A DNA stretch of 54,177 nucleotides, from assembly GCA_024275045.1 (NCBI GenBank), contig JAJRZX010000041.1, positions 1 to 54,177 on the forward strand, read 5' to 3'. The position numbers and the translations under genes were made by a program. This DNA is from Deltaproteobacteria bacterium (GTDB lineage Bacteria > Desulfobacterota > GWC2-55-46 > JADFVP01). Below, piece by piece: positions 8,602-39,057 of the stretch. How positions within the stretch are numbered: position 1 is the stretch's first letter; each line of letters opens with the position of its first letter. A model generated the notes under the pieces. It was given only the letters and a program-made list of their open reading frames with translations, made no database searches and was not told the DNA's origin.

Positions 8602-8796
8602 TGAGGCAGCCTTAAAGAAGTTTTTTTGTTGTCCTGTGCCTTGTATGGTTAAGAAGCGTTAATTCTTATTCCCCTTGTATGGAATGTGGTTGTGTATGGA
8701 GTCTCTCATATTTGCTGTACATGGCCGTGAAATAAAAAAACAGCCCCATTATACAAGAGGGCCGCTTTTCTTCAGGATTATATTCGACCCGCTGCT

Positions 8797-9855
8797 CTAT
8801 GCCAGATCAAGTACGCTTATTTTTCCTGCCAGTGCGCAGGCGATATCCTTAAATGTCTTTGCCTGCTCTGAGTCCGGCTCCAGAAGCACTATGGGTTTAC
8901 CGCAGTCACCGCCCTCGCGCGTCTTAACGTCAAGGGGGAGCTTGCCAAGGAGCGGCACATCGTACCTCTCGCTTGTCTTCTCTCCGCCGCCGTGGCTGAA
9001 TATCTCCGTACTCTCACCGCAGTGGGGGCAGACAAAGAGGCTCATGTTCTCGATAATGCCAAGCACCGGCACCTTGACCTCGGCGAACATCTTTAAGGCG
9101 CGCCGCGCGTCAAGGAGCGCTATGTCCTGAGGCGTAGTGACGATAACCGTCCCTGTAAGCGGGATGGTCTGAACAAGGGTGAGCTGAACATCTCCCGTGC
9201 CCGGCGGAAGGTCTATAATAAGGTAATCAAGCTCGCCCCACTGCACGCCGTTAAGAAACTGCTGAATTAGCTGCATAACAAGGGGGCCCCGCCATATAAG
9301 AGGGGTCTCCTCATCAAGCATAAAACCCACGGAGATGAGCTTTACTCCGTGATTTTCTATTGGTATTAGCTTCTCATCCTCTGTTGCCTCAGGGGCCCGG
9401 TGTATGCCCATCATAAGCGGGATGCTGGGGCCGTAGACATCGGCGTCAAGAAGACCCACTTTCGCTCCTGTACCTGCCAACGCAAGAGCAAGGTTTACGG
9501 CTACCGTGGATTTACCTACGCCGCCCTTTCCGCTGGCAACGGCGATAGTGTTTTTTATCCCGGGTATAGGTGTCTTATCAGGCATTTTTCTGGACTGAGG
9601 CACATCGGCGGTTACGTCTATTTTTACCTCTTTTACGCCCTCTATTCCAAGGGCGGCAGCACGCGCCTGCTCTTCAAGTTCTTTTTTGAGCGGGCAGGCC
9701 GAGGTGGTAAGCACGAGTTTGAAGCTCACGGCAGAGCCGCTAATCTTTATCTCCCGTATCATATTGGCGGATACAAGGTCTTTATTAAGTTCAGGGTCCA
9801 TTACAGAGCTCAGCGCCCCAAGGACCATATCTTCTGTTATATTCTTATCTGTCAC
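8797..9855 (-). CDS. mrp: Mrp/ApbC/NBP35 Fe-S cluster carrier ATPase with N-terminal DUF59
   Basis: VMDPEL (DUF59), SGKGGVGKS, DADVYGPS, DLPPGTGD, ENMS.FVCPHC. Confidence 0.95.
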   Translation of the reverse strand: MTDKNITEDMVLGALSSVMDPELNKDLVSANMIREIKISGSAVSFKLVLTTSACPLKKELEEQARAAALGIEGVKEVKIDVTADVPQSRKMPDKTPIPGIKNTIAVASGKGGVGKSTVAVNLALALAGTGAKVGLLDADVYGPSIPLMMGIHRAPEATEDEKLIPIENHGVKLISVGFMLDEETPLIWRGPLVMQLIQQFLNGVQWGELDYLIIDLPPGTGDVQLTLVQTIPLTGTVIVTTPQDIALLDARRALKMFAEVKVPVLGIIENMSLFVCPHCGESTEIFSHGGGEKTSERYDVPLLGKLPLDVKTREGGDCGKPIVLLEPDSEQAKTFKDIACALAGKISVLDLA

Positions 9856-12788: not shown

Positions 12789-12953
12789 TATTTTTCAATA
12801 CAATAAAGTGGATATTCAGGACTTTGCCCGTCTTGAATGTGGCGTTTTTTTCTATGTAAAATTTTATATCAGCACAAATACAAAGGCGCCATAAAAGCCC
12901 TTTAATATAAATATAACCAGATGAGCAGTAAGCCACTCCGCGGGAGGCATGAT

Positions 12954-15900
12954 TTGAGTAAGAAAGATATTATCTATGTAGGTATGGATGTAGGCTCAGT
13001 AAGCGCCGACACTGTTATACTTGATGAGAATAGAAACATTCTTGAAGAACATTATACCAGGACCGAGGGCGAGCCCCTTGAGACATCGCTCACCCTTTTA
13101 AAGGACATTATCTCACGGTACGGTGAGGGCAATATTGCCCTTGTATCCGTTACCGGCGCAGGCGGCAAGCTCATTGCCCCGCTCATCGGCGCAACCTTTA
13201 CCAACGAGGTTATAGCCCAGGCCAGGGCCGTTGAGACATATCACCCAGATGTGAGGACTGTAATCGAGATAGGCGGTCAGGACGCCAAGCTCATATTTTT
13301 GCGCTCTGAAGGCGGCAAGCTCAGCATAGAGGACTTTCAGATGAACTCTGTCTGCGCCGCGGGCACGGGCAGCTTTCTTGACCAGCAGGCCATACGCATG
13401 GGGCTTACCATTGAAGATTTCGGCCTCCTTGCCCTTAAGAGCAAGAACCCGCCGCGTGTAGCCGGACGTTGCAGCGTATTCGCCAAGAGCGATATGATAC
13501 ACCTGCAGCAGATAGCCACCCCTGATTACGATATTATCGCGGGGCTCTGTTACGCTGTTGCCCGTAACTTTAAATCCACAATAGGCAGAGGTAAGGAGTT
13601 TTTCCCTCCTGTATCATTTCAGGGCGGAGTTGCCGCCAACCTTGGCGTAAGAAAGGCCTTTAAAGAGATACTCGAGCTTAGCGATGAGCAGTATATAATC
13701 CCCAAGCATTTTGCCTCCATGGGCGCCCTTGGCGCGGTCTTTAATAACCTTGATAAGCAAAAGGGGCTGGGCGACTTTAAGGGCGTTGCGGCGCTTGAAG
13801 AGTTTATCCGGGGCGGACGCACAAGCGATAAATCCCTTGACAGGCTTGAGAGGCCAACGGGCCACCCCTCCGAGGATACTACAAAGACGGGTTATAAGCT
13901 TACCCCCGGAGAGCGCGTGCCTGCGTACATGGGCATAGACGTTGGCTCTACTTCTACGAACGTCATCCTTATAGACAAGGACATGAAGCTAATCACAAAG
14001 AGCTACCTGCCAACGGCGGGCCGGCCCCTTGATGCCATAAAGAACGGTTTTAATGAGGTATATGAAGAAGTAGGCGACCGCGTCGAGGTTATGGGCGTGG
14101 GCACCACGGGATCGGGTCGCTACCTTGCAGGTGACTTTGTTGGCGCGGATTGTATGCGTAACGAGATTACGGCTCAGGCCGTTGCCGCCGCCGTAATAGA
14201 CCCGAAGGTGGATACCATCTTCGAGATAGGCGGTCAGGATTCCAAGTACATAGCCCTTGACGACAGCGTGGTAGTGGACTTTGAGATGAACAAGGTCTGC
14301 GCCGCGGGCACGGGCAGCTTTCTTGAAGAACAGGCCGAGAGGCTTGGCATAAGCATTAAGGGCGAGTTCAGCGATATGGCCCTTGACTGCACGGCTCCGC
14401 CCTCCATGGGAGAGAGATGCACGGTATTTATCGAGTCTGATATGGTGAACCATCAGCAAAAAGGCGTTGGAAAAGACGGCCTTGTTGCAGGGCTTGCATA
14501 CTCCATTGTCCTTAACTACCTTAACAGGGTTGTAGGGGACAGGCGTATCGGCAACCACATATTCTTCCAGGGCGGCACGGCGGCAAACCTGGCTGTAGTA
14601 GCGGCCTTTGAGAAGGTTACGGGAAAGAAGATTACCGTTCCCGAGCATCACGATGTTACAGGGGCCATAGGTGTAGCCATACTTGCGCTGCAGGAGATGA
14701 AAGAGGGGCAGCGTACGAAGTTCAGCGGTTTTGACCTTGGAAGTAAAAAACACACCATTGATACCTTTGATTGTACGGATTGCTCTAATGTATGTAATAT
14801 CCGTAAAGTCGTAGTAGACGGGTCCAATCCCATTTATTACGGCGGAAGGTGTGATAAGTACGATGTAAAGGACGGGTCCGAGAAAAAGATAGACCTGCCG
14901 GACCTTTATAAGGAGAGGGAAAAGTTCCTCTACGGCACGTACAGGGGAAAGATAGCCGCAAAGGACGCTCCCGTAATTGGTCTACCCAGAATACTCATGA
15001 TGCACGAGCTCTATCCTTTCTGGAAGGCATTCTTTGATACGCTGGGTTTCAGGGTGCAGCTAAGCTCGCCTACGAGTAAAGATATTATAAAAAACGGTCT
15101 TGAGAAGGTAGTCTCTGAGACCTGTTTTCCCGTTAAGGTTTCTCACGGCCATGTTACGGATCTTCTTGAAAAAGGTCTTAAGAAGATATTCCTTCCAAGC
15201 CTTGTTAATATGCCTCCCGCGAGAGAGGGCGATAACCATACGGTCCTCTGCCCTTACATTCAGGCCCTGCCCTATTACATGGAGTCTGCCTTTAAGTTCG
15301 GGGACCTTGACGGCGTGGAGGTAATAAAACCTGTTATTCATTTTAATCAGAGCATGTCCGGCATTAAGAAGGAGTTCGCGGCCCTTGGGCGCACCCTTGG
15401 TAAGTCCAGACGTGATGTGGACAAGGCACTTAAGGCTGCCTTTGGCGCATGGGACGAGTTCCGTGGAAGCCTCATAGCGCGCGGCAAAGAGGTCATGGAC
15501 AGCCTTGATAAAGACACCGTGGCACTTGTCATTGTGGGCAGAGCCTACAATACGGCGGACTCTGGCATTAACCTTGAGCTGCCCAAGAAACTTCGCGAGA
15601 TGGGCACCCTTGCCATACCCTTTGATATGCTGCCCCTTGATTCCGTAATGGATGATGTTATTGCAAAGGATATGTACTGGAAGAGCGGGCAGAGGATTAT
15701 GGGGGTACAGAAGATAACAAGGGATGATAACCGTCTCTTCTCCGTATACCTTACGAATTTTGGCTGCGGCCCGGATTCCCTTATTACGCATTTTTACCGC
15801 GACGCCTCAAAGGGTAAACCCTTCCTTCAGCTTGAGATAGATGAGCACTCAGCAGACGCCGGGGCCATCACCCGCTGCGAGGCCTACCTTGACAGCATCA

Positions 15901-17195
15901 GAAACGTGAGGGACAAGATTCAGAAAGACACAAAGGTTCGCACTGTCCTTGAGAGGACGAATATTAAGAAAAAAATATTCCTTCCCTACATGGCTGATGG
16001 GGCCTACGGCATAGCCGCTGCCTTTGAGGCCTGCGGCGTGGAGGCCGAGGTAATGCCCATGCCAGATGAGGAGAGCCTTACCTGGGGCCGCCGCTATACC
16101 TCTGGGCGTGAGTGTTTTCCCTGTATCGTTACCACAGGCGACATGATGAAGGTCTTGAAGAGAGATGACTTTGACCCCAAGAAGAGCGCCTTTTTTATGC
16201 CCTCGGGCAACGGCCCCTGCAGGTTCGGTCAGTACAACCGTTATCAGCGCCTTATCCTTGATGAGGTAGGTTCAAAGGAGGTTCCAATCTACGCCCCGGA
16301 TCAGGACGGCACCTTTTATAAGGAGCTGGGCATGGTTGGCGGAAATTTCCCGCGCCTTGCATGGTGGGGCATAGTAGCCGTAGATCTCCTTGAAAAACTC
16401 CTTCGTGAGACAAGGCCATACGAGCAGCACGCAGGAGAGACGGAGAAGGTCTACTGGAGCTCTGTCTGGCGGGTATGCGACGCCATACGTGCCAAGCGTT
16501 TCCCTGATAAGGAGATGAAGATAGCAAGAGACGCCTTCAGGATGGTGGCGGTAAAAGACCCCGGCACAAGACCTGTTGTAGGTGTGGTAGGTGAGATATA
16601 TGTGAGAAATAACCGCTTCAGCAACGAGGACCTTGTGCTTAAACTCGAGGCCCTTGGCGCAGAGGTCATGCTTCCCACGGTCTCGGAGTGGATATTCTAC
16701 ACAAACTTCACCTCCAAGAGAAATACCCTGAAGAGAAAAGACTACGGCGACTTTTTGCGTACGGTAACTAATAACTTCTTCCAGCACAAGGACGAGAGAA
16801 AGCTTGAGAAGATAATCGTGGGAGACCTCAGGAGCGGCCATGAGGCAGGCACTGAGGAGATTATCAAGAACGCCGAGCCTTATATACACGATTCCTTTGA
16901 GGGCGAGGCCGTCTTAAGCGTGGGCAAAGCCATTGATTATATCTCTCACGGCGTAAGCGGCATTGTTAATGCCATGCCATTTACCTGTATGCCGGGCACT
17001 GTTGTTAACGCCATGCTCAAAAAACTTCGTGAAGATAACCATAACATTCCGTACCTGAATATGGTCTACGAGGGCATGGAGACGGCCAATACCATTACGC
17101 GTATGGAGGCCTTTGTTCATCAAGCCCATGACTTTAAGTCAAGAGTAGGTGAGAGGGGCAAGAAAGACCACGGTGTAAACAAGGCCGCCGGCTGA
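12954..17195 (+). CDS. Multidomain acyl-CoA dehydratase activase-like protein (two BadF/BadG/BcrA/BcrD ATPase domains, DUF2229 and dehydratase-like C-terminal region)
   Basis: Two copies of GxDVGS...EIGGQD.K...MN.VCAAGTGSFL...RC.VF; ETCFPVKV.HGH, NFGCGPDS, LEIDEH, GPCRFGQY, PFTCMPG; TTG start after GGGAGG (track uses ATG 12921). Confidence 0.9.
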   Translation: MSKKDIIYVGMDVGSVSADTVILDENRNILEEHYTRTEGEPLETSLTLLKDIISRYGEGNIALVSVTGAGGKLIAPLIGATFTNEVIAQARAVETYHPDVRTVIEIGGQDAKLIFLRSEGGKLSIEDFQMNSVCAAGTGSFLDQQAIRMGLTIEDFGLLALKSKNPPRVAGRCSVFAKSDMIHLQQIATPDYDIIAGLCYAVARNFKSTIGRGKEFFPPVSFQGGVAANLGVRKAFKEILELSDEQYIIPKHFASMGALGAVFNNLDKQKGLGDFKGVAALEEFIRGGRTSDKSLDRLERPTGHPSEDTTKTGYKLTPGERVPAYMGIDVGSTSTNVILIDKDMKLITKSYLPTAGRPLDAIKNGFNEVYEEVGDRVEVMGVGTTGSGRYLAGDFVGADCMRNEITAQAVAAAVIDPKVDTIFEIGGQDSKYIALDDSVVVDFEMNKVCAAGTGSFLEEQAERLGISIKGEFSDMALDCTAPPSMGERCTVFIESDMVNHQQKGVGKDGLVAGLAYSIVLNYLNRVVGDRRIGNHIFFQGGTAANLAVVAAFEKVTGKKITVPEHHDVTGAIGVAILALQEMKEGQRTKFSGFDLGSKKHTIDTFDCTDCSNVCNIRKVVVDGSNPIYYGGRCDKYDVKDGSEKKIDLPDLYKEREKFLYGTYRGKIAAKDAPVIGLPRILMMHELYPFWKAFFDTLGFRVQLSSPTSKDIIKNGLEKVVSETCFPVKVSHGHVTDLLEKGLKKIFLPSLVNMPPAREGDNHTVLCPYIQALPYYMESAFKFGDLDGVEVIKPVIHFNQSMSGIKKEFAALGRTLGKSRRDVDKALKAAFGAWDEFRGSLIARGKEVMDSLDKDTVALVIVGRAYNTADSGINLELPKKLREMGTLAIPFDMLPLDSVMDDVIAKDMYWKSGQRIMGVQKITRDDNRLFSVYLTNFGCGPDSLITHFYRDASKGKPFLQLEIDEHSADAGAITRCEAYLDSIRNVRDKIQKDTKVRTVLERTNIKKKIFLPYMADGAYGIAAAFEACGVEAEVMPMPDEESLTWGRRYTSGRECFPCIVTTGDMMKVLKRDDFDPKKSAFFMPSGNGPCRFGQYNRYQRLILDEVGSKEVPIYAPDQDGTFYKELGMVGGNFPRLAWWGIVAVDLLEKLLRETRPYEQHAGETEKVYWSSVWRVCDAIRAKRFPDKEMKIARDAFRMVAVKDPGTRPVVGVVGEIYVRNNRFSNEDLVLKLEALGAEVMLPTVSEWIFYTNFTSKRNTLKRKDYGDFLRTVTNNFFQHKDERKLEKIIVGDLRSGHEAGTEEIIKNAEPYIHDSFEGEAVLSVGKAIDYISHGVSGIVNAMPFTCMPGTVVNAMLKKLREDNHNIPYLNMVYEGMETANTITRMEAFVHQAHDFKSRVGERGKKDHGVNKAAG

Positions 17196-19893: not shown

Positions 19894-20631
19894 ATGCGTA
19901 ATATCAGACTTGATTTAGAGTACGAGGGCACACGTTACGTGGGGTGGCAGTATCAGCTTAACGGCCCCTCGGTGCAGGCCGAGGTAATGAGTGTCCTTAA
20001 AAAGATTACCGGCGAGGACGTAAAACTTACGGGGGCGTCTCGCACTGACAGCGGGGTGCATGCCGCGGGGCAGGTGGCCAACTTTTTTACAACCTCGAAG
20101 ATGCCTGCTCTTGAACTGCGGCGCGGCCTTAACGCGCTCCTGCCCGATGATATCGCCGTTCTTGACGCCGCTGACGTGCCTGCTGATTTTGACGCCAGAA
20201 GCGCCTCATCAAAGACATATGTTTACTCTGTGCTTGCAAGGGTAGCGCCTTCGCCCTTAATGAGGCGATTCTCGTGGCATGTTCCATGGCCCATTGATCT
20301 ATCCGCCATGAACGAGGGTGGGGCTTATATGTTGGGACGTAAAGATTTTTCCTCTTTCAGGGCCGCCCGCTCAGATGCCTATCATTCCGTAAGAGAGGTC
20401 TTGTCCGTAAGGATAACTTCAGGGGCCAATGAAGTTATCGCCATAGAGGTGCGGGGCAGGGCGTTCTTGCGTCATATGGTTAGGATAATGGCCGGGACCC
20501 TGGTGGACGTTGGGCTTGGCCGCATACCCCCCTCGGATGTAGAGGCGATAATCTCGGCAAAAGACCGCTCAGCTGCTCCTCGTACTGCCCCTGCCTGCGG
20601 TCTGCTACTTAAAAATATCCGCTACATATAG
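19894..20631 (+). CDS. truA: tRNA pseudouridine(38-40) synthase
   Basis: YEGTRYVGWQ, GASRTDSGVHA, FLRHMVRIMAG, TAPACGL. Confidence 0.97.
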   Translation: MRNIRLDLEYEGTRYVGWQYQLNGPSVQAEVMSVLKKITGEDVKLTGASRTDSGVHAAGQVANFFTTSKMPALELRRGLNALLPDDIAVLDAADVPADFDARSASSKTYVYSVLARVAPSPLMRRFSWHVPWPIDLSAMNEGGAYMLGRKDFSSFRAARSDAYHSVREVLSVRITSGANEVIAIEVRGRAFLRHMVRIMAGTLVDVGLGRIPPSDVEAIISAKDRSAAPRTAPACGLLLKNIRYI

Positions 20632-20738
20632 ATTTTTAACGGCCTTGAATCACCCCTTTTTGGTAGAATAGACTTGAGTTTACAGGTGTGCTGTTGCATA
20701 CTAAAGGGTCTAAGAGACTATTGATTTAAGGGGTAAAG

Positions 20739-21635
20739 ATGGAACTTACACTGGGGCCCATACTCTTTGAGTGGAAGAGGGGCGATGTGCTTCGCTTCTA
20801 CGAGGAGGCGGCACGGATGGACGTTAATACCGTCTATCTCGGAGAGGTGGTCTGCGATAAAAAGAGGGGTCTTTCCCTTGATGATATAAAGGAGACGGCG
20901 GCAATGCTTACAGAGGCCGGTAAGAAGGTGGTTTTATCAAGCCTTGCCGTTATCTCCAATGAGAGAGAGCTTGATATGGCCCGTGGGCTCCTGAGTCTGC
21001 CTTATGCCATTGAGGCCAATGATATGAGTGTATTTAATATGACCGCCGCTAATGAGAGAGAGCTTTACTGCGGCCCTCATATTACGAGTTATAATGTGCC
21101 AAGTATGGAGTTTCTGAGCTCCCTTGGTGTAAAGCGCGTGACCTTTCCCGTGGAGCTATCGGCTGAGTCCGTGAGCTACAATGTAAAGCACACCTCAATG
21201 GAGACCGAGGTCTTTGCCTGGGGCCGAGTACCGCTGGCCTTTTCCTGGAGGTGTTATACCTCAAGGTCCCATGGATTAAGTAAGACCGAGTGTCAGCATA
21301 ACTGTGTGGATTACCCCGATGGCCTTATGATACGCACCATGGATGGTAAACCCATCTTTACCATTAACGGTACCTCAATACTCAGCGCAGCCACGTTATC
21401 GCTTGCCGGCATGACAGAGGAGCTTGGCGCGATGGGTGTGAGCGCGCTTCGTATCTCACCTCAGTCTGAGGGTACGGCAGAGGTGGTAAAGGTTTTTCGG
21501 GAGAGGCTAAATGGTGAGTCTACGGCGACGGAGGCTGAGAAGAGGCTGGAAAAACTCTGCTCAGAGGGCTCGCTCTGCAGCGGCTGGTATCACGGAGGGG
21601 CGGGCATGGCCCCGTTAATACCGCAGAGCGGCTGA
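20739..21635 (+). CDS. ubiV: U32-family Fe-S protein UbiV (O2-independent ubiquinone hydroxylation)
   Basis: LTLGPILFEW...FY...VYLGEVVC(39) N-terminus and PLAFSWRC-x12-C-x3-C reproduce the UbiV cysteine pattern; adjacent to ubiB/E/T. Confidence 0.88.
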   Translation: MELTLGPILFEWKRGDVLRFYEEAARMDVNTVYLGEVVCDKKRGLSLDDIKETAAMLTEAGKKVVLSSLAVISNERELDMARGLLSLPYAIEANDMSVFNMTAANERELYCGPHITSYNVPSMEFLSSLGVKRVTFPVELSAESVSYNVKHTSMETEVFAWGRVPLAFSWRCYTSRSHGLSKTECQHNCVDYPDGLMIRTMDGKPIFTINGTSILSAATLSLAGMTEELGAMGVSALRISPQSEGTAEVVKVFRERLNGESTATEAEKRLEKLCSEGSLCSGWYHGGAGMAPLIPQSG

Positions 21636-21747
21636 TTTTTTACCTGTCCTGCTGAGGCGGGGTATGTGCAGGCTTTTGCCTATCCCGTGATTTTTTGTAG
21701 GCGCACGAGGCGGGGGAGGGGTTAATTATAAATGAGGAGGTTTTGTA

Positions 21748-22158
21748 ATGACAGATATGCTCGATAAGGTCCTGCTTGTTGGCATGGGCCTTGATAAGAA
21801 GATAAAAGAGGTTCTTGAGGACCTGCAAAAACGCGGCGAGAGTGAGGGGAGTGATAATGGGGAGAGCAAAGGCGGGGATAAGGGCGATGAGGGACTTACT
21901 CCGAGGCAGACCGTTGAGAATAAGATAGTTGATGAGGGCACTGCCGTAGTCAAGGAGCTGCTCTCTGTTGTGGATAGCGCCAAGACTCGCATTGAGGAGG
22001 AGCTCTCGGCCAATTCAGGCAAGATTCGCGGTAAGCTCAATGTTGCCGGGGTTGAGGAGATAGAGGTAGTGAAAGAGATGGCTCGTCTTGCAAGGGAAAA
22101 AGTAGATAGCCTGGAAAAGAGGGTTGAAAAACTTGAGTCTCTCTTAAAGAAGAAATAA
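21748..22158 (+). CDS. Coiled-coil accessory protein, UbiK/BMFP-like C-terminus with phasin-like N-terminus
   Basis: C-terminal EEIEVVKEMARLAREKVDSLEKRVEKLE resembles UbiK/BMFP; lies between ubiV and ubiB. Confidence 0.6.
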   Translation: MTDMLDKVLLVGMGLDKKIKEVLEDLQKRGESEGSDNGESKGGDKGDEGLTPRQTVENKIVDEGTAVVKELLSVVDSAKTRIEEELSANSGKIRGKLNVAGVEEIEVVKEMARLAREKVDSLEKRVEKLESLLKKK

Positions 22159-22180
22159 GAGCATGGAGCGCGTGTAAGGT

Positions 22181-23848
22181 ATGGCCACGCAGAGGATAAA
22201 AAATATAAGACGGCTTGTGAGTATAGTTTTTGTACTCGTGCGGTATGGTTTTGGCGGTATCGCGGGACGCATGAGGATAATTCCCTTTATTAACGTCTTT
22301 ACGAGGATATTTTTTACAGGTAAAGGCATGGATGCCCTCTCTGTGCCAAAGAGGATAAGGCTTGTTCTTGAGGACCTTGGCCCCACCTTTGTAAAGCTTG
22401 GTCAGATTGCCTCTACACGGGCCGATGTCTTTCCACCGGAGTGGATAGATGAGTTCAAGAACCTTCAGGATAAGGTGGCACCTGTGCCTTATTCCGCGGT
22501 AAAGGCCGCCGTGGAGAGTGCCCTTGGCGCGCCACTTGAGGATAAGTTCGCCTCTTTTACCGAGACCCCCGTGGCCTCGGCCTCCATTGCGCAGGTACAC
22601 CTTGCCACTCTCCGTGACGGAACCGAAGTGGCCGTTAAGGTAAAACGGCCCGGCATAGGTCCTGTGATTGATGCGGATATGTCTGTCATGCACACCCTTG
22701 CTCATCTTATGGAGAGGTATGTGCAGGGCGCGCGCATGTTCCGTCCCGTGGAGGTAGTGACGGAGTTTGAGAGGGTGATTACAAAGGAGCAGGACCTTTC
22801 CATAGAAGGGGCGAGCATGGAGCGCTTCTCCGCCATCTTCAAGGGCAACAGCGATGTGCAGATACCGCGTGTGTACTGGGATTACTCCAATGCAGACGTG
22901 CTTACAATGGAGAGGATTTACGGGACGCCCATTGACGAGGTGGAGATACTGAGGTCAAAGGGCGTGGATATAAAGAAGGTTGCCGTAAAGGGCGTGGAGC
23001 TCTTTTTCAAGCAGGTCTTTGAGCACGGGATTTTTCACGCGGATCTTCATCCCGGCAATATCTTTGTCCGTGACGACGGCGTTATTATTTATCTGGACTT
23101 TGGCATTGTGGGCCGCCTTGACAGGGGCCTTCGAAAGTACCTGGCAAGCATTCTTTATTATATAGTGCGTAAAGACTACCGCGGCATGGCGCAAGTGCAC
23201 AGGGACATGGGCCTTATAAGCGACAGGGTGAGCCTTGAGGAGTTTGAGGATACGCTGGCTGAGATAACAGAGCCCATATTCGGTAAAACCCTGGAGCGTA
23301 TCAATGTCTCGGGACTGCTTATGAAACTTATTGAGACGGCGCGTCGTTTTGATATGACCCTGCAGCCAAACCTGCTGCTGCTGCAAAAATCCATGGTTAT
23401 TATCGAGGGTGTGGGCAGACAGCTTTACCCTGATGTGAATATGTGGGACGTTGCACGCCCACTGGTATACCGCTGGATGATACGTGAAAAATTTTCACCC
23501 GGCAAGATCGCGGCAAAGGGCGGCCGTGTTGGTGAGGAGATATTAAAGTCAACCCTTGAGCTCCCGGTAAAGCTTAATGACCTGCTCTCAAAGACAGCAG
23601 AAGGCGGGCTTAATGTTGGCTTTACCCATCACGGTCTTGAAGACCTTGTAGGGGGCGTAGAGGGCGCGGGCAGACTCATAGCCGGAGGCATTGTCGTAGC
23701 CTCTCTTGTTATGGCGGGGGCCCTGCTTGCGGCTTTTTCCGGCCCCGGCGCGATACGTATCCTTGGGCTGCCACTTGGCAGCGGAGTGCTTTTTGTTGTC
23801 GCCATAGCAGCGGCCTTCAGGTTTTTTAGAAGGTCCTCCTGCGGGTAG
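22181..23848 (+). CDS. ubiB: UbiB/ABC1 atypical kinase
   Basis: LGPTFVKLGQ, VASASIAQVH, VAVKVKRP, FHADLHPGN, LDFGIVG, QPNLLLLQK..IEGVGRQLYP. Confidence 0.92.
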   Translation: MATQRIKNIRRLVSIVFVLVRYGFGGIAGRMRIIPFINVFTRIFFTGKGMDALSVPKRIRLVLEDLGPTFVKLGQIASTRADVFPPEWIDEFKNLQDKVAPVPYSAVKAAVESALGAPLEDKFASFTETPVASASIAQVHLATLRDGTEVAVKVKRPGIGPVIDADMSVMHTLAHLMERYVQGARMFRPVEVVTEFERVITKEQDLSIEGASMERFSAIFKGNSDVQIPRVYWDYSNADVLTMERIYGTPIDEVEILRSKGVDIKKVAVKGVELFFKQVFEHGIFHADLHPGNIFVRDDGVIIYLDFGIVGRLDRGLRKYLASILYYIVRKDYRGMAQVHRDMGLISDRVSLEEFEDTLAEITEPIFGKTLERINVSGLLMKLIETARRFDMTLQPNLLLLQKSMVIIEGVGRQLYPDVNMWDVARPLVYRWMIREKFSPGKIAAKGGRVGEEILKSTLELPVKLNDLLSKTAEGGLNVGFTHHGLEDLVGGVEGAGRLIAGGIVVASLVMAGALLAAFSGPGAIRILGLPLGSGVLFVVAIAAAFRFFRRSSCG

Positions 23849-23860
23849 CAATAGCGGCTG

Positions 23861-23869
23861 TGCTATAAT
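23861..23869 (+). promoter_or_regulatory. Extended -10 element before ubiE
   Basis: TGCTATAAT 22 nt upstream of the ubiE ATG. Confidence 0.45.
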
Positions 23870-23891
23870 AAAAAAAGGGCCTTATAAAAAT

Positions 23892-24650
23892 ATGGAAGAT
23901 AAGAGAGTGGAAAAGACAACTCATTTCGGTACTCGTATAGTGCCTGAAGCAGAGAAAGAAGGGCTTGTACGCGAGGTCTTTGATACTGTGGCAGGTAAAT
24001 ACGACCTTATGAACGACCTCATGAGCATGGGTACTCACAGGCTCTGGAAGAGGGGCCTTGCCGCTGAGACACTTCTTCGCCCCGGCCAGAGCGCACTTGA
24101 TGTTGCCGGCGGCACCGGTGATATTGCCCTGCTAATGGCCGGTCAGGTAGGGGCCTCGGGGCACGTGGTAGTCTATGATATTAACGGAGAGATGCTTAAA
24201 GAGGGCAAAAAAAAGTGCATTGACAGAGGTTTTTTAAAGGGGCTGGATTTTGTCCAGGGCAACGGCGAGTCCATCTCTTTTCCTGATAATACCTTTCACG
24301 CCGTTACCGTGGGGTTTGGCATACGCAATGTAACTCACCTTGAGAGGGCCTTTGCCGAGATGACCCGTGTGGTAAAACCCGGCGGAAGGGTCATATGCCT
24401 TGAGTTCTCGCATGTGAAAAACCCGCTCTTGAAAAAGCTCTATGATGTTTATTCCTTCTCATTTATCCCGGCTGTGGGTGAGTCCATTACAGGTAACCGC
24501 GATGCGTATGTTTATCTCCCTGAATCAATAAGGCAGTTTCCAACTCAAGAGCGTCTGCGTGAGATAATGCTCTCCGCAGGGCTCTGGAAGGTACGGTACA
24601 AGAATATATTCGGCGGTATAGCCGCCCTGCATATAGGCATAAAAGTATGA
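23892..24650 (+). CDS. ubiE: Ubiquinone/menaquinone C-methyltransferase
   Basis: TTHFG, VFDTVAGKYDLMNDLMSMG.HRLWK, LDVAGGTGD, FGIRNVT, YLPESIRQFP. Confidence 0.95.
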   Translation: MEDKRVEKTTHFGTRIVPEAEKEGLVREVFDTVAGKYDLMNDLMSMGTHRLWKRGLAAETLLRPGQSALDVAGGTGDIALLMAGQVGASGHVVVYDINGEMLKEGKKKCIDRGFLKGLDFVQGNGESISFPDNTFHAVTVGFGIRNVTHLERAFAEMTRVVKPGGRVICLEFSHVKNPLLKKLYDVYSFSFIPAVGESITGNRDAYVYLPESIRQFPTQERLREIMLSAGLWKVRYKNIFGGIAALHIGIKV

Positions 24651-24663
24651 AGAGGTTTTTTTC

Positions 24664-25101
24664 ATGGATGAAGCCGTAAATAATAAGAAGGCCGTGGAAG
24701 AGAGGCTTAAAAAGACCTGCAAAAAGGCGACGAGGCTTTTATTAAAGGCCACGCCCCTTGTCTTTGAGGGCCTTGCCGTTGGTGCGGTATTATCGGCTAT
24801 GATAACGCGTAACCCCGAGCTTGGCGCCCGTCTTGGCGAACTTGACGGCAAGGTCTTTTTTTTCGAGGCCACGGATATCGGCAGAGGGTTTTTTCTCCAT
24901 ATAACTGATGGGCAGATAAAGGTGGTGCTTCATATGAGCGGCGCGCCTGATGTTACCATGAGAGGGGATGTTACGGTGCTCATGGATGTGCTTGCGGGGC
25001 GCGTAGACCCTGATACTGTTTTTTTCTCACGGAAACTGGAGATAGAGGGAGATACGGCTACGGCCATACACTTTAAGAATATACTGGCAAGTTTTTATTG
25101 A
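24664..25101 (+). CDS. ubiT: SCP2-domain ubiquinone accessory factor, UbiT-like
   Basis: C-terminal VDPDTVFFSRKLEIEGDT...FKN matches the UbiT DPDTLFFxRRLxIEGDT motif; no UbiJ-type C-terminal coiled coil. Confidence 0.82.
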   Translation: MDEAVNNKKAVEERLKKTCKKATRLLLKATPLVFEGLAVGAVLSAMITRNPELGARLGELDGKVFFFEATDIGRGFFLHITDGQIKVVLHMSGAPDVTMRGDVTVLMDVLAGRVDPDTVFFSRKLEIEGDTATAIHFKNILASFY

Positions 25102-25332
25102 GAGGGGGGCTTTGTGCCTGTGCTTCTCACCCAGCCACTCATCTGTGCTTAATTGTTTTTTTACGGCATTTATCTTGTTCTTTTCTCTTTGGACCTCTCC
25201 CTGATGGTTTTATATGTTGGCAATAAAAGCGTGAAGTCCGCTCTCTTTGGCGGCGCCTGTATAGGCGGCTTTGCACCAAATAAATTCTTGACCTTAAGAA
25301 GGAAAAGACATTAAATAACAAGAGGTGAGCTC

Positions 25333-26049
25333 TTGAAGGCCCGGGTAATAAAAAGGCTTCGCAGCGCCTCTTCTCCGCTATTTATGACAGGGGCGGGGAT
25401 AAGCGCCGAGAGCGGTCTGCCCACTTTTAGAGGTAAGGACGGGCTATGGAGAGGGGCAAGCCCTGAGGAGTTGGCAACACCGCAGGCCTTTGGCCGAGAC
25501 CCTCTGCGTGTCTGGCAGTGGTATGACTGGAGACGGGGGCTTATATCAAGAGTATCTCCAACGGCGGCCCATATGGCCATGGCCGGGTTTCGAACACGGG
25601 CGGGCCGTGAGGTCCCCGTAATCACGCAGAACGTAGACGGCCTGCATCAGAGCGCGGGGAGTTCACATGTTTTAGAGCTGCACGGCTCCATATGGAGACT
25701 TCGGTGTGTACGCTGCGGAGTTGAGGTGCAGGACAGGGTTACGGGGTTAAGTGAGGTGCCGCTCTGTGAGTGCGGAGGTTTGCTGAGGCCCGCTGTGGTC
25801 TGGTTTGGCGAGTTGCTTCCGGAGGACGTTTTTTCAGAGGCTCTGGAACTTGCGAGAGGGTCTGATTTTGTAATGGTAGTTGGCACATCAGGGGTGGTTC
25901 AGCCGGCTGCCTCGCTTGTGAATATCGCAAGGGAGGGCAACGCCTTTATCGTAGAGGTAAACCCCGAGGAGACGTGTCTTGGCAGATTAGCGGATATATC
26001 TTTTCATGAGGCGGCAGGGGATATTGTTGCCGAACTTTTACAGGTGTAG
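25333..26049 (+). CDS. cobB: NAD-dependent protein deacylase (sirtuin)
   Basis: TGAGISAESGLPTFRG, ITQNVDGLH, ELHGS, CxxC..CxC zinc site, RPAVVWFGE, VGTSG.VQPAA. Confidence 0.95.
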   Translation: MKARVIKRLRSASSPLFMTGAGISAESGLPTFRGKDGLWRGASPEELATPQAFGRDPLRVWQWYDWRRGLISRVSPTAAHMAMAGFRTRAGREVPVITQNVDGLHQSAGSSHVLELHGSIWRLRCVRCGVEVQDRVTGLSEVPLCECGGLLRPAVVWFGELLPEDVFSEALELARGSDFVMVVGTSGVVQPAASLVNIAREGNAFIVEVNPEETCLGRLADISFHEAAGDIVAELLQV

Positions 26050-33412: not shown

Positions 33413-33925
33413 ATGATCCTGAAAAAACTCGTCATATTGGCGGCAGTATTTTTCGTGGCCTTTGTCATAGGCTACGGCATTGATGCCGCTCTTCGCACGG
33501 ATCTTGATCCTGTGCAGCCCATAAAATTCAGCCATAAGATACATGCAGGCACAAACGAGATACCGTGTCAGTTCTGCCATATTTACGCCGAGAGGTCCCG
33601 TGTCTCCGGTGTGCCTAATGTGCAGCGCTGCATGGGGTGCCACAAGATTATTAAGACAGAGAGCCCTGAGATAAAGAAACTCACGGCATACTGGGATAAA
33701 AGAGAACCAATTCCGTGGACAAAAGTACATAATCTCCCCGATTATGTCTACTTCCCCCACAAAAGGCATATAAGGGCAGGGCGTAAATGCGCTGATTGCC
33801 ACGGCGACATCGCTTCCATGGACAGGGTAAGACGCGTCTCCTCTTTGCAGATGGGGTGGTGCCTGCAATGCCACAAGAAGTACGATGTTAAGAACGGTCA
33901 GGCATGCTGGACCTGTCACATATAA
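33413..33925 (+). CDS. actA: Pentaheme cytochrome c, ActA/QrcA-type
   Basis: N-terminal TM, QPIKFSHKIHAG, five CxxCH (CQFCH, CMGCH, CADCH, CLQCH, CWTCH), LPDYVYFPH. Confidence 0.9.
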   Translation: MILKKLVILAAVFFVAFVIGYGIDAALRTDLDPVQPIKFSHKIHAGTNEIPCQFCHIYAERSRVSGVPNVQRCMGCHKIIKTESPEIKKLTAYWDKREPIPWTKVHNLPDYVYFPHKRHIRAGRKCADCHGDIASMDRVRRVSSLQMGWCLQCHKKYDVKNGQACWTCHI

Positions 33926-34110
33926 GGCGTGGGGGGTAGTTGCGGGTGCGGGGAGCCTTGTCTAAGACGGGCAGCTAAAGGGGCCGGGGCGATACGGTTG
34001 GGGATGAGTTAGCAAGGGGAGTGAGGATCAGGGGAGGCTTTAAGGTCTGTCTGTAACGGGTCAGTGAGAGAGAAGGGCCTTTAAATATACAGTTTTTTAT
34101 CGGACAAAAG

Positions 34111-36411
34111 ATGAAACGTAGAGATTTTCTAAAATATATCGGAGTGGGCGGCGCAGGCGTAGTTCTCGGCGGGGTTTTTGGCAAGATCTCAAGGCCGCCG
34201 GGTGCAAAGCTTATCCCCTACCTTATCCCGCCTGAGGATATTATCCCCGGCGTGGGGGCATGGTATTCCAGCCTCTGCACGCAGTGCCCTGCGGGCTGCG
34301 GCACCGTGGTAAAGGTCATGGACGGCAGGGCCAAGAAGGTAGAGGGCAACCCTCTGCATCCGGTGAACAAGGGAAAGCTCTGCGCAAGGGGGCAGGCAGG
34401 TCTTCAGGCCCTATATAACCCGGATCGCATAAAGGCGCCCATGAAGAGAAAGGGCACCCGCGGTAACGGCAAGCCCGGAGAATTTGAAGAAATATCATGG
34501 GAGCGGGCATTAAAGATTCTTTCCGCCAATATTAAGGACCTCTCAGATAAGGGCGAGGCAGAGGGGGTTTATCTCCGTACCAATACAGTTCGCGGTCATC
34601 TGGATAAGCTTTTTGGCGGATTCATGGAGAGCCTTGGTTCACCCAATTACAGCCAGTACGAGCTCTATGATTACAGGAGCCTGCGTTTTGCCAATAAGGC
34701 GGCCTTTGCCATTGACGCCATACCTCATTACGATATTGCCAACGCCTCCATGGTACTCTCCTTTGGGGCTGATTTTAACAGCACCTGGATATCTCCGGTT
34801 AACTACGGTTATGCTTACGGCGAGATGCGCCAGGGCAGCGGAGTAAGAGGCAGGCTCGTTCATGTGGAGCCGCGTATGTCCCTCACCGGCGCCAATGCCG
34901 ATGAGTGGGTGCCCATAAGGCCGGGTACAGAGGGCATCTTCGCCCTCTCCATAGCATACGCGATTCTGGACGCCGGGCTTTATTCCGGTAAGGACGTGGC
35001 AAAGTGGAAGACAGCCCTTGCGGGTTTTTCCCCATCAGCTACGGCAAGGACAACAGATGTGGCCGCAGCAAGGACGCTTAAGCTTGCAAAGGAGTTTGCC
35101 GCAGCTGAGAGGCCCCTTGCCATAGGCGGAGAGGTTGTTGCAGGTTATGATAACGGCGTAAGCAGCCTGCTTGCCGTAAATATATTAAATTACCTCGGCG
35201 GCGGCACCGGCGCTAAAGGCGGTATCATACCTAACCCTGATGAGCTCTTTTTTGCCGACGGCACTCAAGAGATGGACTTTGAGAGAGGCATCGCGGGTTT
35301 TGTTAAAGACGCGGCCTCCTCAAAAGTTAAAGTCCTTATGCTTCATAACACAAATCCGCTCTTTACCACCTCGCCGAAACTCGGCCTGGAGCTTGCGCTT
35401 AAAAAAGTGCCCTTTATATGCGCCATGACATCTTTTATGGATGAGACCTCGGCCATGGCCGACCTTATCCTGCCCCTGCATACCTCTTTTGAGGAGTGGG
35501 GCGATGACTTTACCAATCCTGCCGTGGGCGCGCCTGTGGCTACTCTCATGCAGCCCGTTGTAAGCCCTGTCTTTAATACCAGGGGGGCGGGAGACATCTT
35601 CGTGGCGCTTGCCAGCGCTATTGGCGGTAAAGTGGCCGAGGACCACCACTGGATGAGTTATGCCGAGTATCTCCGTGCGGCCTGGAATGATTTATATGAT
35701 AAGAACGCTGAGATCTCACGCGGAACCCTTACCTTTGACGGGTTCTGGAACAAGCTTCTGCAGGAGGGCGGCTGGTGGAAGAAGGCCGTTAATCCGTCTG
35801 GAGTTAAGGCCCTTTCAACTACGCCTAAAAAGGTGGGCAAGGGGCTCTTCGCCAAACCTGCCAAGTTTGCCGGCAAGATGTCTGATTATCCCCTCTACCT
35901 TATGCTCTACCCTCAGGCAGGGCACCTTGACGGGCGCGGGGCTAACCTGCCCTGGCTCCAGGAGCTGCCCGACCCCATTACCACGGTGGTTTGGGGAAGC
36001 TGGGTAGAGATAAACCCCGTAACAGCAAAGCAGCTTGGCTTTAAAGAAGGCGATAAGGTAAGGATTGAGTCCCCCTATGGTTCCATCAAGGCATTTGTCT
36101 TTCCATACGCCGGGATCAGGCCCGATACAGTGGCCCTCCCCATAGGGCAGGGACACAAGCTCTACGGCAGGTACGCCAAGGGCCGCGGTGTTAACCCCAT
36201 TGAGATAATTCCCGCTGTGGCGGATAAAGACTCCGGTGCCATGGCCCTTAACTGCACACGCGTGAAGGTAGAGCACTCCGGAGGCTCGGGACGCCTTGTT
36301 AAGATTGAGCCCACGGCCAAGGAGCACGGCAAGCCCACTCAGCACGGCAGGCCCATTGTGCAGACTATTACCAGCCGCGAGTATAAAAGACTTAAAAAGG
36401 AGACTACATAA
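34111..36411 (+). CDS. Molybdopterin-oxidoreductase-like subunit of alternative complex III (ActB1/QrcB-like), Tat-exported
   Basis: MKRRDFLK Tat motif, IPYLIPPEDIIPG, CTQCPAGC-x27-C, ANLPWLQELPDP.T..W. Confidence 0.88.
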   Translation: MKRRDFLKYIGVGGAGVVLGGVFGKISRPPGAKLIPYLIPPEDIIPGVGAWYSSLCTQCPAGCGTVVKVMDGRAKKVEGNPLHPVNKGKLCARGQAGLQALYNPDRIKAPMKRKGTRGNGKPGEFEEISWERALKILSANIKDLSDKGEAEGVYLRTNTVRGHLDKLFGGFMESLGSPNYSQYELYDYRSLRFANKAAFAIDAIPHYDIANASMVLSFGADFNSTWISPVNYGYAYGEMRQGSGVRGRLVHVEPRMSLTGANADEWVPIRPGTEGIFALSIAYAILDAGLYSGKDVAKWKTALAGFSPSATARTTDVAAARTLKLAKEFAAAERPLAIGGEVVAGYDNGVSSLLAVNILNYLGGGTGAKGGIIPNPDELFFADGTQEMDFERGIAGFVKDAASSKVKVLMLHNTNPLFTTSPKLGLELALKKVPFICAMTSFMDETSAMADLILPLHTSFEEWGDDFTNPAVGAPVATLMQPVVSPVFNTRGAGDIFVALASAIGGKVAEDHHWMSYAEYLRAAWNDLYDKNAEISRGTLTFDGFWNKLLQEGGWWKKAVNPSGVKALSTTPKKVGKGLFAKPAKFAGKMSDYPLYLMLYPQAGHLDGRGANLPWLQELPDPITTVVWGSWVEINPVTAKQLGFKEGDKVRIESPYGSIKAFVFPYAGIRPDTVALPIGQGHKLYGRYAKGRGVNPIEIIPAVADKDSGAMALNCTRVKVEHSGGSGRLVKIEPTAKEHGKPTQHGRPIVQTITSREYKRLKKETT

Positions 36412-37170
36412 GTGTCCGGTGTGATAGATAAGATAAAAGAGCGCCTCAAGGACTTCAGGAGGCCCGGTTATTATAAGGAGTTCGATCACCACTACGCCAT
36501 TGTCATTGACGTGGACAGGTGCAACGGATGCGAGGCATGCGTGGTATCCTGTTACGCAGAGAACAACCTGCCCGTTGTAGGCGAGCAGGGCTGTGAGGAC
36601 AACAGGGTATTTAACTGGCTCCGGATAGAGCGCTACATTGAGGGCGAGTACCCTGATGTGAAGGTCAAATTCATCCCCGTAATGTGCCAGCAGTGCGACG
36701 CCGCTCCATGTGAGATAGGTTGCCCGGTTTACGCCACCTATCACAATCAGGACGGGCTTAATGTGCAGGTCTACAACCGCTGCGTGGGTACCTTTACCTG
36801 CGCCACATACTGCCCTTATGATGTGAGGCGTTTTAACTGGTTCAGCTACAAATGGGATAAACCCCTTGATGAGCAGCTGAACCCCGATGTTACGGTACGC
36901 GAGATGGGTGTTATGGAAAAATGCACCTTCTGCATCCAGAGAATAAGAGGCGTCAACGATAAGGCCAAGGACGGGAAGAGAAAGGTAAAGGACGGCGAGA
37001 TTCAGACCGCGTGCGCCCAGTCCTGTCCCACCGGGGCCATTACATTTGGAGATTTAATGGACCCCGAGAGTAAGGTCTCAAAACTGGCGGCAAGCAAGCG
37101 CGGGTATAAGCTCTTTGAGAACCTTGAGACCAAACCATCTGTCATCTACCTGAAAAGGGTAATGGATTAA
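36412..37170 (+). CDS. Fe-S subunit of alternative complex III (ActB2/QrcC-like)
   Basis: CNGCEAC..C, CQQC..PC..CP, RCVGTFTC..CPY (Thr for Cys, [3Fe-4S] type), MEKCTFC; AAGGAG RBS before GTG. Confidence 0.9.
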   Translation: MSGVIDKIKERLKDFRRPGYYKEFDHHYAIVIDVDRCNGCEACVVSCYAENNLPVVGEQGCEDNRVFNWLRIERYIEGEYPDVKVKFIPVMCQQCDAAPCEIGCPVYATYHNQDGLNVQVYNRCVGTFTCATYCPYDVRRFNWFSYKWDKPLDEQLNPDVTVREMGVMEKCTFCIQRIRGVNDKAKDGKRKVKDGEIQTACAQSCPTGAITFGDLMDPESKVSKLAASKRGYKLFENLETKPSVIYLKRVMD

Positions 37171-38555
37171 TGTCTAATAACGAGTCCAAGAGGGTTATAC
37201 CATACAGCGAAGTTAACGACGACGTACTTCGCACCATGACCAAGACAGGCCCGGGCTACTACGTGGCCCTTGTGGTCTGCTTTTTACTTGCCGCAGGGCT
37301 CTGGGGCGGCGCGTGGTTTTATCAGATTTACGTAGGTCAGGGAGTCTCCGGGCTGCAGACCCCGGCTTTCTGGGGCATCTATATCGCCAACTTCATCTTC
37401 TGGATAGGTATCAGCCATTCGGGCACCCTGCTATCTGCCATTCTATTCATAACGCAGACCCCGTGGCGTAGATCTATTTACCGAAGCGCCGAGGCCATGA
37501 CGTTTTTCTCCGTTATGACGGCGGCTATCTTTATCTTTGTTCATATGGGCAGACCCTGGAATTTTTACTGGACCATGCCGTATCCCAACCAGCGGCTCCT
37601 CTGGGTGAACTTCCTCTCTCCCCTTATGTTTGATGTTCTTGCCATCAGCACATATGCCACGTCTTCCATGATATTCCTTTACTTCGGTTCAATACCGGAT
37701 CTTGCCGCCGTAAGGGACAGGACCACAGGCTGGAGAAGAGAGTTCTACGGATGGCTCTCTCTGGGCTGGAGAGGTACGGACGCGGAGTGGCACTGGCTTA
37801 ATAAGGCATACGGCTTCTTCGCAGTCTTTATTATCCCACTTGCCGTATCCGTGCACTCCATTGTCTCATGGGACCTTGCCCTCTCCATGGTGCCGGCCCT
37901 TAATAAGACGATATTCGCCCCGTACTTTGTTGTTGGAGCCATATACTCGGGCTCCGCGGCTATTGTTACCCTTATGATATTTGTGAGAAAGTTCCTTAAG
38001 GTGGAGAAATACATCACCATCGACCACCTCTCAAAGCTCTGCATGCTCCTTCTTGTAATGTCCCTTATATGGAGCTATATCAACGTCATGGAGGTCTTTA
38101 CGGGTTGGTACGCCAATACCAATTATGAGAATGAGGCCATGATCTACCGTATGTTCAAGAGCCCCATTGCTATTATATACTGGCTCATGATAGCGACAAA
38201 CACTGTTGCGCCTCTCTTCCTTATGTTTAGAAGCATAAGAAGGTGCGTGCCTATAATATTTTTCATATCCATCGGTATAAACGTGGGCATGTGGATAGAG
38301 AGGTATCTTCTCGTTGTATCCACTCTGCCGAGAAAGTACTTCCCCTTCATGTGGAACAGTTATCTGCCGAGCCTTGCGGAAATATCCATGACAGTGGGCT
38401 CGTTCTTTTTCTTTGCCGTATTATTTCTGCTCTTTATTAAACTATGGCCCAGTATCTCTATCTACGAGGTTAAGGAAGATATAGGGATACCCAGGAAAAA
38501 GCCTCATACAAAGGAAATGGATCATGAAGATGGCTCCCCTACTTGGTATATATAA
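37170..38555 (+). CDS. actC: NrfD/PsrC-family quinol-binding subunit ActC
   Basis: WGIYIANFIFWIGISHSGTLLSAIL, HMGRPW, SPLMFD, SVHSIVSWD, PYFVVGAIYSG, GMWIERY. Confidence 0.92.
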   Translation: MSNNESKRVIPYSEVNDDVLRTMTKTGPGYYVALVVCFLLAAGLWGGAWFYQIYVGQGVSGLQTPAFWGIYIANFIFWIGISHSGTLLSAILFITQTPWRRSIYRSAEAMTFFSVMTAAIFIFVHMGRPWNFYWTMPYPNQRLLWVNFLSPLMFDVLAISTYATSSMIFLYFGSIPDLAAVRDRTTGWRREFYGWLSLGWRGTDAEWHWLNKAYGFFAVFIIPLAVSVHSIVSWDLALSMVPALNKTIFAPYFVVGAIYSGSAAIVTLMIFVRKFLKVEKYITIDHLSKLCMLLLVMSLIWSYINVMEVFTGWYANTNYENEAMIYRMFKSPIAIIYWLMIATNTVAPLFLMFRSIRRCVPIIFFISIGINVGMWIERYLLVVSTLPRKYFPFMWNSYLPSLAEISMTVGSFFFFAVLFLLFIKLWPSISIYEVKEDIGIPRKKPHTKEMDHEDGSPTWYI

Positions 38556-39057
38556 GCACGCCGATACCATGATGGAAGCGGCCGACAAGCTGCAGAACAC
38601 GGGGTATGAGGTGACGCTGTTCTCGCCTGTGCCGCTGGGCCATGAGCCCGAGTACAGCGCCGTTCAGCAGCGCCATAATTATGTGCGCTACTTTACCCTC
38701 TTCGGCGGGGTAGCAGGTTTTATCTTCGGTATTTTGCTTACTCTGGGCACGGCCGTTATGTATATACTTCCAAGGGGCGGAAAACCGGTCTTTGCCATGA
38801 CACCAACCCTGCTTATCTCTTACGAGACAGCCATACTCTTTGGTGTTCTCTGGACCTTAATGGGTTTTCTTGTTATCGCAAAGCTACCCTATTACGGGAA
38901 AGACAGGCTGTACGACCCTGTGGTTAATGTAGATGGTTTTGGTCTTCTTGTTGATGGAATCCGTGATGATATGTACGATGTGGTCGAGGGGGTACTCAGA
39001 GAATTCGGGGCCCACGAGGTTAGACTCCTTACACGCGGGATAGAAGAAGAGGCTTGA
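38524..39057 (+). CDS. actD: ActD (DUF3341) membrane subunit
   Basis: FSPVPL, two TM helices, GGKP...P...YE..ILF; follows actC. Confidence 0.85.
   Translation: MKMAPLLGIYKHADTMMEAADKLQNTGYEVTLFSPVPLGHEPEYSAVQQRHNYVRYFTLFGGVAGFIFGILLTLGTAVMYILPRGGKPVFAMTPTLLISYETAILFGVLWTLMGFLVIAKLPYYGKDRLYDPVVNVDGFGLLVDGIRDDMYDVVEGVLREFGAHEVRLLTRGIEEEA

Follow-up and report, generated by a model that had tools for sequence, protein, structure and literature searches.

The window analysed here is a 54,177-nucleotide stretch of DNA, a 54-kb contig (C11) of a genome deposited as Deltaproteobacteria bacterium. The element under study is a row of five co-oriented genes within it, ubiV-ubiK-ubiB-ubiE-ubiT, the products of which resemble proteins of ubiquinone biosynthesis. 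The genome comprises 2.28 Mb in 156 contigs and is 99.24% complete by marker genes, with an estimated contamination of 1.99%. An initial annotation, made from the letters of the DNA, had proposed UbiV, UbiK-like, UbiB, UbiE and UbiT genes in this region. All five are open reading frames (ORFs) on the plus strand with support from profile models, and ubiU was found on another contig of the same genome.

20739-21635, plus strand: ubiV, 298 amino acids; U32-family [4Fe-4S] subunit of an O2-independent ring hydroxylase
21748-22158, plus strand: ubiK-like, 136 amino acids; C-terminal BMFP coiled-coil domain and about 55 extra N-terminal residues
22181-23848, plus strand: ubiB, 555 amino acids; ABC1/UbiB atypical kinase-like accessory protein
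23892-24650, plus strand: ubiE, 252 amino acids; quinone-ring C-methyltransferase
24664-25101, plus strand: ubiT, 145 amino acids; SCP2 lipid-binding accessory factor of the O2-independent pathway
C116:4208-5224, minus strand: ubiU; NF047963, 451.5 bits against a cut-off of 440

The ubiVKBET locus and the pathway around it

The intergenic gaps from ubiV to ubiT are, in order, 112, 22, 43 and 13 nucleotides. A promoter and terminator scan of positions 20500-25450 was uninformative: four promoter-like sites were detected where shuffled sequences predict 4.5, and four terminator-like sites where they predict 5.1. Gene identities were assigned with NCBIfam and Pfam profile models against their curated cut-offs. 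UbiV passes its model (NF047965, 306.8 bits against 275) and is 31% identical to Escherichia coli UbiV over 300 residues. The cysteine pattern C39...C-x12-C-x3-C to which the initial annotation had pointed is real: C39, C172, C185 and C189 are invariant among 40 aligned homologues and align to C39, C180, C193 and C197 of E. coli UbiV. The latter are [4Fe-4S] ligands according to mutagenesis (Pelosi et al. 2019, PMC6747719, cited here from excerpts). The second protein passes the BMFP model PF04380 over residues 57-130 (39.7 bits against 37.2), and most related loci have a counterpart, 29-65% identical, in the same place after ubiV and before ubiB. UbiB is supported by TIGR01982 (515.4 bits against 487.55) and PF03109 (269 bits), and UbiE by PF01209 (268.9 bits) and the UbiE/MenG subfamily model TIGR01934 (256.7 bits against 158.35). 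UbiT scores 78.2 bits against 46.9 on NF047962 but only 22.3 against 275 on the UbiJ model, and over 115 residues it shares 31% identity with its E. coli counterpart.

Elsewhere in the genome, UbiU is 52% identical to E. coli UbiU, and its C176, C183, C200 and C240 align to the E. coli ligands C169, C176, C193 and C232. Contig C132 carries a chorismate pyruvate-lyase-like gene, ubiA (TIGR01474, 298.3 bits against 275.45) and ubiD in a row. The contig stops within ubiD, and the best model of the partial product is 4-hydroxy-3-polyprenylbenzoate decarboxylase. A ubiX gene lies on C83 (215 bits against 108.9). No flavin hydroxylase of the UbiH/F/I type exceeds its cut-off in the genome, where the top match is a geranylgeranyl reductase, and COQ7 was found in none of 11 genomes including this one, in agreement with the earlier suggestion of a pathway that is O2-independent only. 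The absence of ubiJ noted at the outset holds as well: no second SCP2-domain gene was found in the genome beside ubiT, and we therefore conclude that there is no UbiJ. MqnA and MqnD gave no match in the genome, and MenD exceeded its cut-off in 0 of the 11 genomes. As the opposite outcome, the initial annotation had named a genome that lacks ubiA, ubiG and ubiU and makes only menaquinone. We found ubiA and ubiU above their cut-offs and no MqnA/D or MenD; ubiG, however, is absent from the assembly.

We read the five genes as the ubiV-ubiK-ubiB-ubiE-ubiT locus of a complete and exclusively O2-independent ubiquinone pathway in an uncultured Desulfobacterota-type host, of the kind described as class GWC2-55-46, and put the probability of this reading at about 0.9. 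It draws on the observed gene identities, cysteine ligands, gene order and conservation, and on the observed absence of O2-dependent hydroxylases and menaquinone genes; from these, the host would be expected to synthesize ubiquinone and to use it. By homology with E. coli and with complemented orthologues, chorismate lyase would form 4-hydroxybenzoate, which UbiA would prenylate and UbiD and UbiX would then decarboxylate. The UbiU-UbiV pair, with one four-cysteine [4Fe-4S] cluster per subunit, would add the three ring hydroxyl groups without O2, and the SCP2 cavity of UbiT would hold the lipid intermediates, replacing UbiJ. UbiE would add the C-methyl group and UbiG the two O-methyl groups, with UbiB and the UbiK-like protein as helpers.

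Ubiquinone was long regarded as indicative of Pseudomonadota and of an oxygen-dependent life. The E. coli genes ubiT and ubiU-ubiV are divergently oriented, whereas ubiV and ubiT are co-oriented in the window; ubiE-ubiJ-ubiB of E. coli presumably lies away from ubiT, ubiU and ubiV. The E. coli proteins UbiT, UbiU and UbiV have the same four-cysteine [4Fe-4S] motifs and UbiT SCP2 domain as those described here, but E. coli also has UbiI, UbiH and UbiF as well as UbiJ, and the window's genome has neither (PMC6747719 for E. coli). By the description in excerpts of PMC13386864, Magnetococcia, which belong to the Pseudomonadota, are the only other group in which ubiK, ubiB and ubiE are intermingled with ubiT, ubiU and ubiV. 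The methyl-plastoquinone pathway of Nitrospirota has homologous prenyltransferase, decarboxylase and C-methyltransferase steps (PMC11874023).

The arrangement, which the initial annotation considered possibly unreported, is in print. The study 'Global distribution of isoprenoid quinones across Bacteria' (PMC13386864; bioRxiv 17 Sept 2025, mSystems 1 July 2026), cited from excerpts throughout, describes nine metagenome-assembled genomes (MAGs) of the Desulfobacterota class GWC2-55-46 with ubiA, B, C, D, E, G, K, X, T, U and V, no menaquinone pathway and an O2-independent route only. Two conserved loci, ubiCADG and ubiVKBET, are described there. Genes of one MAG, all but ubiK, raised ubiquinone-8 (UQ8) in the matching E. 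coli ubi mutants, and the Ubi proteins of the class branch sister to those of Pseudomonadota. Its authors claim the first ubiquinone pathway outside Pseudomonadota and support for an O2-independent ancestral route. Compared with that description, the window's genome has the same ubiVKBET locus, and a second locus with C, A and D in which G is expected next, and O2-dependent hydroxylases and menaquinone pathways are likewise absent; nothing essential differs. The window's cluster and its interpretation are already known, anticipated in full by that study.

Host lineage, conservation and competing explanations

For the comparison of related loci, one genome per species was scanned for UbiV and the 80 nearest loci were taken; their titles are submitters' labels. 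The nearest UbiV proteins are 55-79% identical to that of the window, and their named sources are 'Thermodesulfobacteriota bacterium' or 'Deltaproteobacteria bacterium'. The 80 loci are titled Thermodesulfobacteriota, Deltaproteobacteria or unclassified, plus two Proteobacteria, one Desulfuromonadales and six Nitrospirae/Nitrospirota (39-41% identity). Room for the cluster, that is, at least 4400 nucleotides from the ubiV start to the end of the locus, is present in 53 of the 80, and the five genes occur in the order V-K-B-E-T on one strand in 40 of these 53 (41/80 overall). The gene truA lies directly upstream of ubiV in 30/80 loci, and the neighbours asd and truA, in the same order, are common to 30 loci, with asd 68-87% identical. 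These conserved flanks indicate that the ubi cluster sits in the lineage's own chromosome and, together with the titles of most related loci, they support the non-Pseudomonadota host suspected earlier. In 19/80 loci ubiU directly precedes ubiV; the window's genome has it on another contig.

Several related loci carry a CGGC-domain gene between ubiB and ubiE, and the window has none.

L047:11013-11447: CGGC-domain gene; PF08821, 84.5 bits
L022:11035-11532, L030:11307-11741, L061:11141-11611: CGGC-domain gene candidates, judged by eye from their first residues

A number of points weigh against an O2-independent ubiquinone pathway in a GWC2-55-46 host. UbiG does not exceed its cut-off in the genome (best match 52.7 bits against 102.95), and it is the relatives and the place where a contig breaks off that suggest the presence of ubiG. 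The second gene passes the BMFP Pfam model only and fails the UbiK equivalog NF047835 (16.3 bits against 100), and is therefore named UbiK-like; a ubiK orthologue failed to complement E. coli in PMC13386864. UbiE stays below every UbiE/MenG equivalog cut-off (best for UbiE, 320 against 351) and passes the subfamily model only. A weak MenA-like prenyltransferase is encoded on C79 (134.5 bits against 277, under all cut-offs). Membership of class GWC2-55-46 is suggested by the titles of the relatives and the identical gene order, and our tree of U32 proteins was built in quick mode, with a single reference from Pseudomonadota and with long branches, that of E. coli UbiV being very long. According to PMC13386864, quinones have not been measured in any member of the lineage.

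The lack of a UbiG above the cut-off despite 99.24% completeness, and the 279 bits that the window's UbiE reaches on the MpqE model, would fit a genome truly without UbiG that makes a different benzoquinone, plastoquinone-like or with a non-methoxylated ring. We consider this highly unlikely. The MpqE model is not reached by the methyltransferase (NF052510, 279.3 bits against 335), and UbiG exceeds its cut-off in 38 of the 41 genomes of a set of relatives (the exceptions being the window's genome, G014 and G037) and in all eight same-genus genomes; the window's pathway is therefore of the ubiquinone type and not of the methyl-plastoquinone type. Moreover, ubiD adjoins ubiG in five of six ubiG loci of relatives. 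Two same-genus stretches are collinear with C132 to its final bases, inside ubiD. In one of them ubiG comes directly after ubiD, and C13, another contig of the window's genome, starts some 0.8 kb past the end of ubiG. Because relatives carry ubiG by ubiD and C132 breaks inside ubiD, we favour an assembly gap of about 2 kb, from C132 to C13, as the site where ubiG would be expected. A true loss of ubiG was considered and rejected on the strength of this adjacency, the collinearity of C132 and C13 with a same-genus stretch, and the 38 relatives with UbiG. One GWC2-55-46 MAG in PMC13386864 is without ubiG and has ubiD at a contig boundary, the same type of artefact.

A contaminant contig from Pseudomonadota, or a very recent transfer from them, would make the non-Pseudomonadota host an artefact. 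In its favour, 'Proteobacteria bacterium' is the title of two among the 80 loci and the bin has its 1.99% contamination estimate, but this explanation is extremely unlikely given a 54-kb contig on which the asd/truA order is that of 30 same-lineage loci, UbiV in 13/13 sampled same-class genomes, and an E. coli UbiV that is merely 31% identical; trees in PMC13386864 place the class outside extant Pseudomonadota. That the U32 protein is an RNA hydroxylase of the TrhP/RlhA kind, and a mere neighbour of quinone genes, has next to no probability. U32 proteins have one common fold, and there are weak matches to TrhP (24 bits) and to E. coli RlhA (24% identity over 152 residues). However, the UbiV equivalog is passed, TrhP scores 24 bits against a cut-off of 534, and the operon position with ubiK, ubiB, ubiE and ubiT is conserved. 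A quick maximum-likelihood tree, built from 110 U32 sequences, places the window protein together with E. coli UbiV in the UbiV clade and E. coli TrhP and RlhA on the opposite side, outside the UbiU clade; the split has a support of 100 in the Shimodaira-Hasegawa-like approximate likelihood ratio test (SH-aLRT). The grouping with RNA hydroxylases that the initial annotation had named as a possible objection was thus not found.

Contigs of this genome break near dispersed intergenic repeats. Three tandem copies lie upstream of ubiU (C116:5225-5452) and one upstream of ubiD (C132:3568-3678), and these copies terminate in a short hairpin and a ribosome-binding site. Such repeats may be the cause of the assembly break near ubiD. 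The sequence shared upstream of ubiU and ubiD was rejected as a ubi-specific regulatory motif, as it is this dispersed repeat and none precedes ubiV.

In an even sample of 401 genomes of the phylum, a UbiV match at E <= 1e-40 was obtained in 26, comprising the window's genome, 13/13 others of the same class and 12/387 of other classes. Among the 12, UbiG exceeds its cut-off in six and UbiT in nine, distributed over families as follows.

f15 (G045, G089, G125, G158): UbiG 4/4, UbiT 4/4
f32 (G063, G103, G138, G170): UbiG 2/4, UbiT 3/4
f31: UbiG 0/2, UbiT 0/2
f35 and f111 (one genome each): UbiG 0/2, UbiT 2/2

UbiV, UbiG and UbiT thus occur together in at least two families assigned to other classes of the phylum. 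Judged by gene content, ubiquinone makers outside Pseudomonadota may be more widespread than the one reported class; the additional classes may also merely reflect a newer taxonomy release than that used in PMC13386864.

Other redox genes of the window and the genome

About 8 kb downstream of the ubi cluster lies a row of genes resembling Alternative Complex III, followed by further candidate electron-transfer genes; a large ATPase fusion lies upstream of the cluster, and two multihaem cytochromes are encoded on another contig.

33413-40752, plus strand: Alternative-Complex-III-like row of a pentahaem cytochrome c, a molybdopterin-oxidoreductase-family subunit and three NrfD-type membrane subunits
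42792-44018, minus strand: 407-residue ORF with a single CxxCH and no Pfam family
47356-48369, plus strand: 4Fe-4S dicluster protein, preceding the next gene
48379-50415, plus strand: NrfD-type membrane subunit fused to a C-terminal four-CxxCH cytochrome domain; a quinone-linked module
12921-17195, plus strand: 1424-residue fusion of two BadF/BcrA-type ATPase domains and a DUF2229 CoA-enzyme-activase domain
C31:1034-6093, minus strand: two adjacent, very large multihaem cytochromes with 25 and 21 CxxCH motifs (1077 and 599 residues)

The Alternative-Complex-III-like row is a likely quinol oxidase for the quinone that the host would make. Language-model look-alikes of the 407-residue ORF are unnamed 'porin family' proteins of 410-450 residues; we take it, as a candidate lead only, to be possibly a fused cytochrome-porin of the Cyc2 type, and it probably prompted the remark of the initial annotation on electrons from Fe(II), a link that is speculative. 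Fusions of BadF/BcrA and DUF2229 CoA-enzyme-activase domains are typical of anaerobes. The genome also encodes heme O synthase and three COX1-family matches, one of which (443 bits) lies beside heme O synthase on C45. The host is therefore probably able to respire O2 while building its quinone without it.

UbiU, UbiV and UbiT in Nitrospirota

Five of the related loci titled Nitrospirae or Nitrospirota (L091, L092, L093, L094 and L096) carry ubiU-ubiV-ubiT, and all five retain the four UbiV cysteines.

L091, L092 and L093, about 6990-9240: ubiU-ubiV(-ubiT); titled Nitrospirota
L094, 2141-9484: one co-oriented cluster of chorismate lyase, ubiA, ubiD, two FGE/EgtB-C-like genes and then ubiU-ubiV-ubiT; same layout in L096

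The ubiA of the L094/L096-type cluster scores 299.8 against a cut-off of 275.45. In L094, UbiU and UbiV fall short of their cut-offs (412 against 440 and 274.2 against 275), and UbiT exceeds its own (56.3 against 46.9). In the five genomes with these loci, a profile search found UbiG above the cut-off in none, and a UbiH-family flavin monooxygenase in none. MpqE exceeds its cut-off in all five (356-380 against 335) and in 0/14 control genomes.

We surveyed an even sample of 251 Nitrospirota genomes, counting UbiV-like matches at E <= 1e-40 and flavin monooxygenase matches at E <= 1e-20. MpqE exceeded its cut-off in 85 genomes. A UbiV-like match was present in 12, of which 11 were MpqE-positive. 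Matches to the UbiH-family flavin monooxygenase were found in 76 genomes, all under that family's cut-off. Among the 74 MpqE-positive genomes that lack a UbiV match, 67 had the flavin enzyme; among the 11 that have one, only a single genome did. This is a contrast among kin genomes of unstated completeness and may reflect very few events. The idea that the flavin monooxygenase takes the operon position of UbiU-UbiV-UbiT was not borne out: in four genomes, no ubiA, ubiD or FGE-like gene was found in the roughly 10 kb before and the 1.3-2.4 kb after the best flavin monooxygenase match.

Elling et al. (2025, PMC11874023) termed the C1 hydroxylation of methyl-plastoquinone 'unresolved' and never mention UbiU, UbiV or UbiT. 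PMC12998194 states that a candidate for this step has yet to be identified, and excerpts of PMC13386864, PMC10411912 and PMC12998194 do not tie the three proteins to Nitrospirota quinones; the pattern of ubiU-ubiV-ubiT with MpqE may be new. We tentatively propose, as a possibility we hold somewhat short of even, that UbiU-UbiV-UbiT could be the O2-independent ring C1 hydroxylase of methyl-plastoquinone in a minority of Nitrospirota, with the flavin enzyme as the aerobic candidate. UbiU, UbiV and UbiT would then not be confined to ubiquinone makers.

A complete pathway that is O2-independent only, in a lineage sister to sulfate reducers, is relevant to the question of whether ubiquinone synthesis ancestrally needed O2. 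This argument has already been published with experiments, and the window adds one genome and wider counts. The Nitrospirota pattern outweighs the finding in the window, as it offers a concrete, testable candidate for the missing methyl-plastoquinone hydroxylase.

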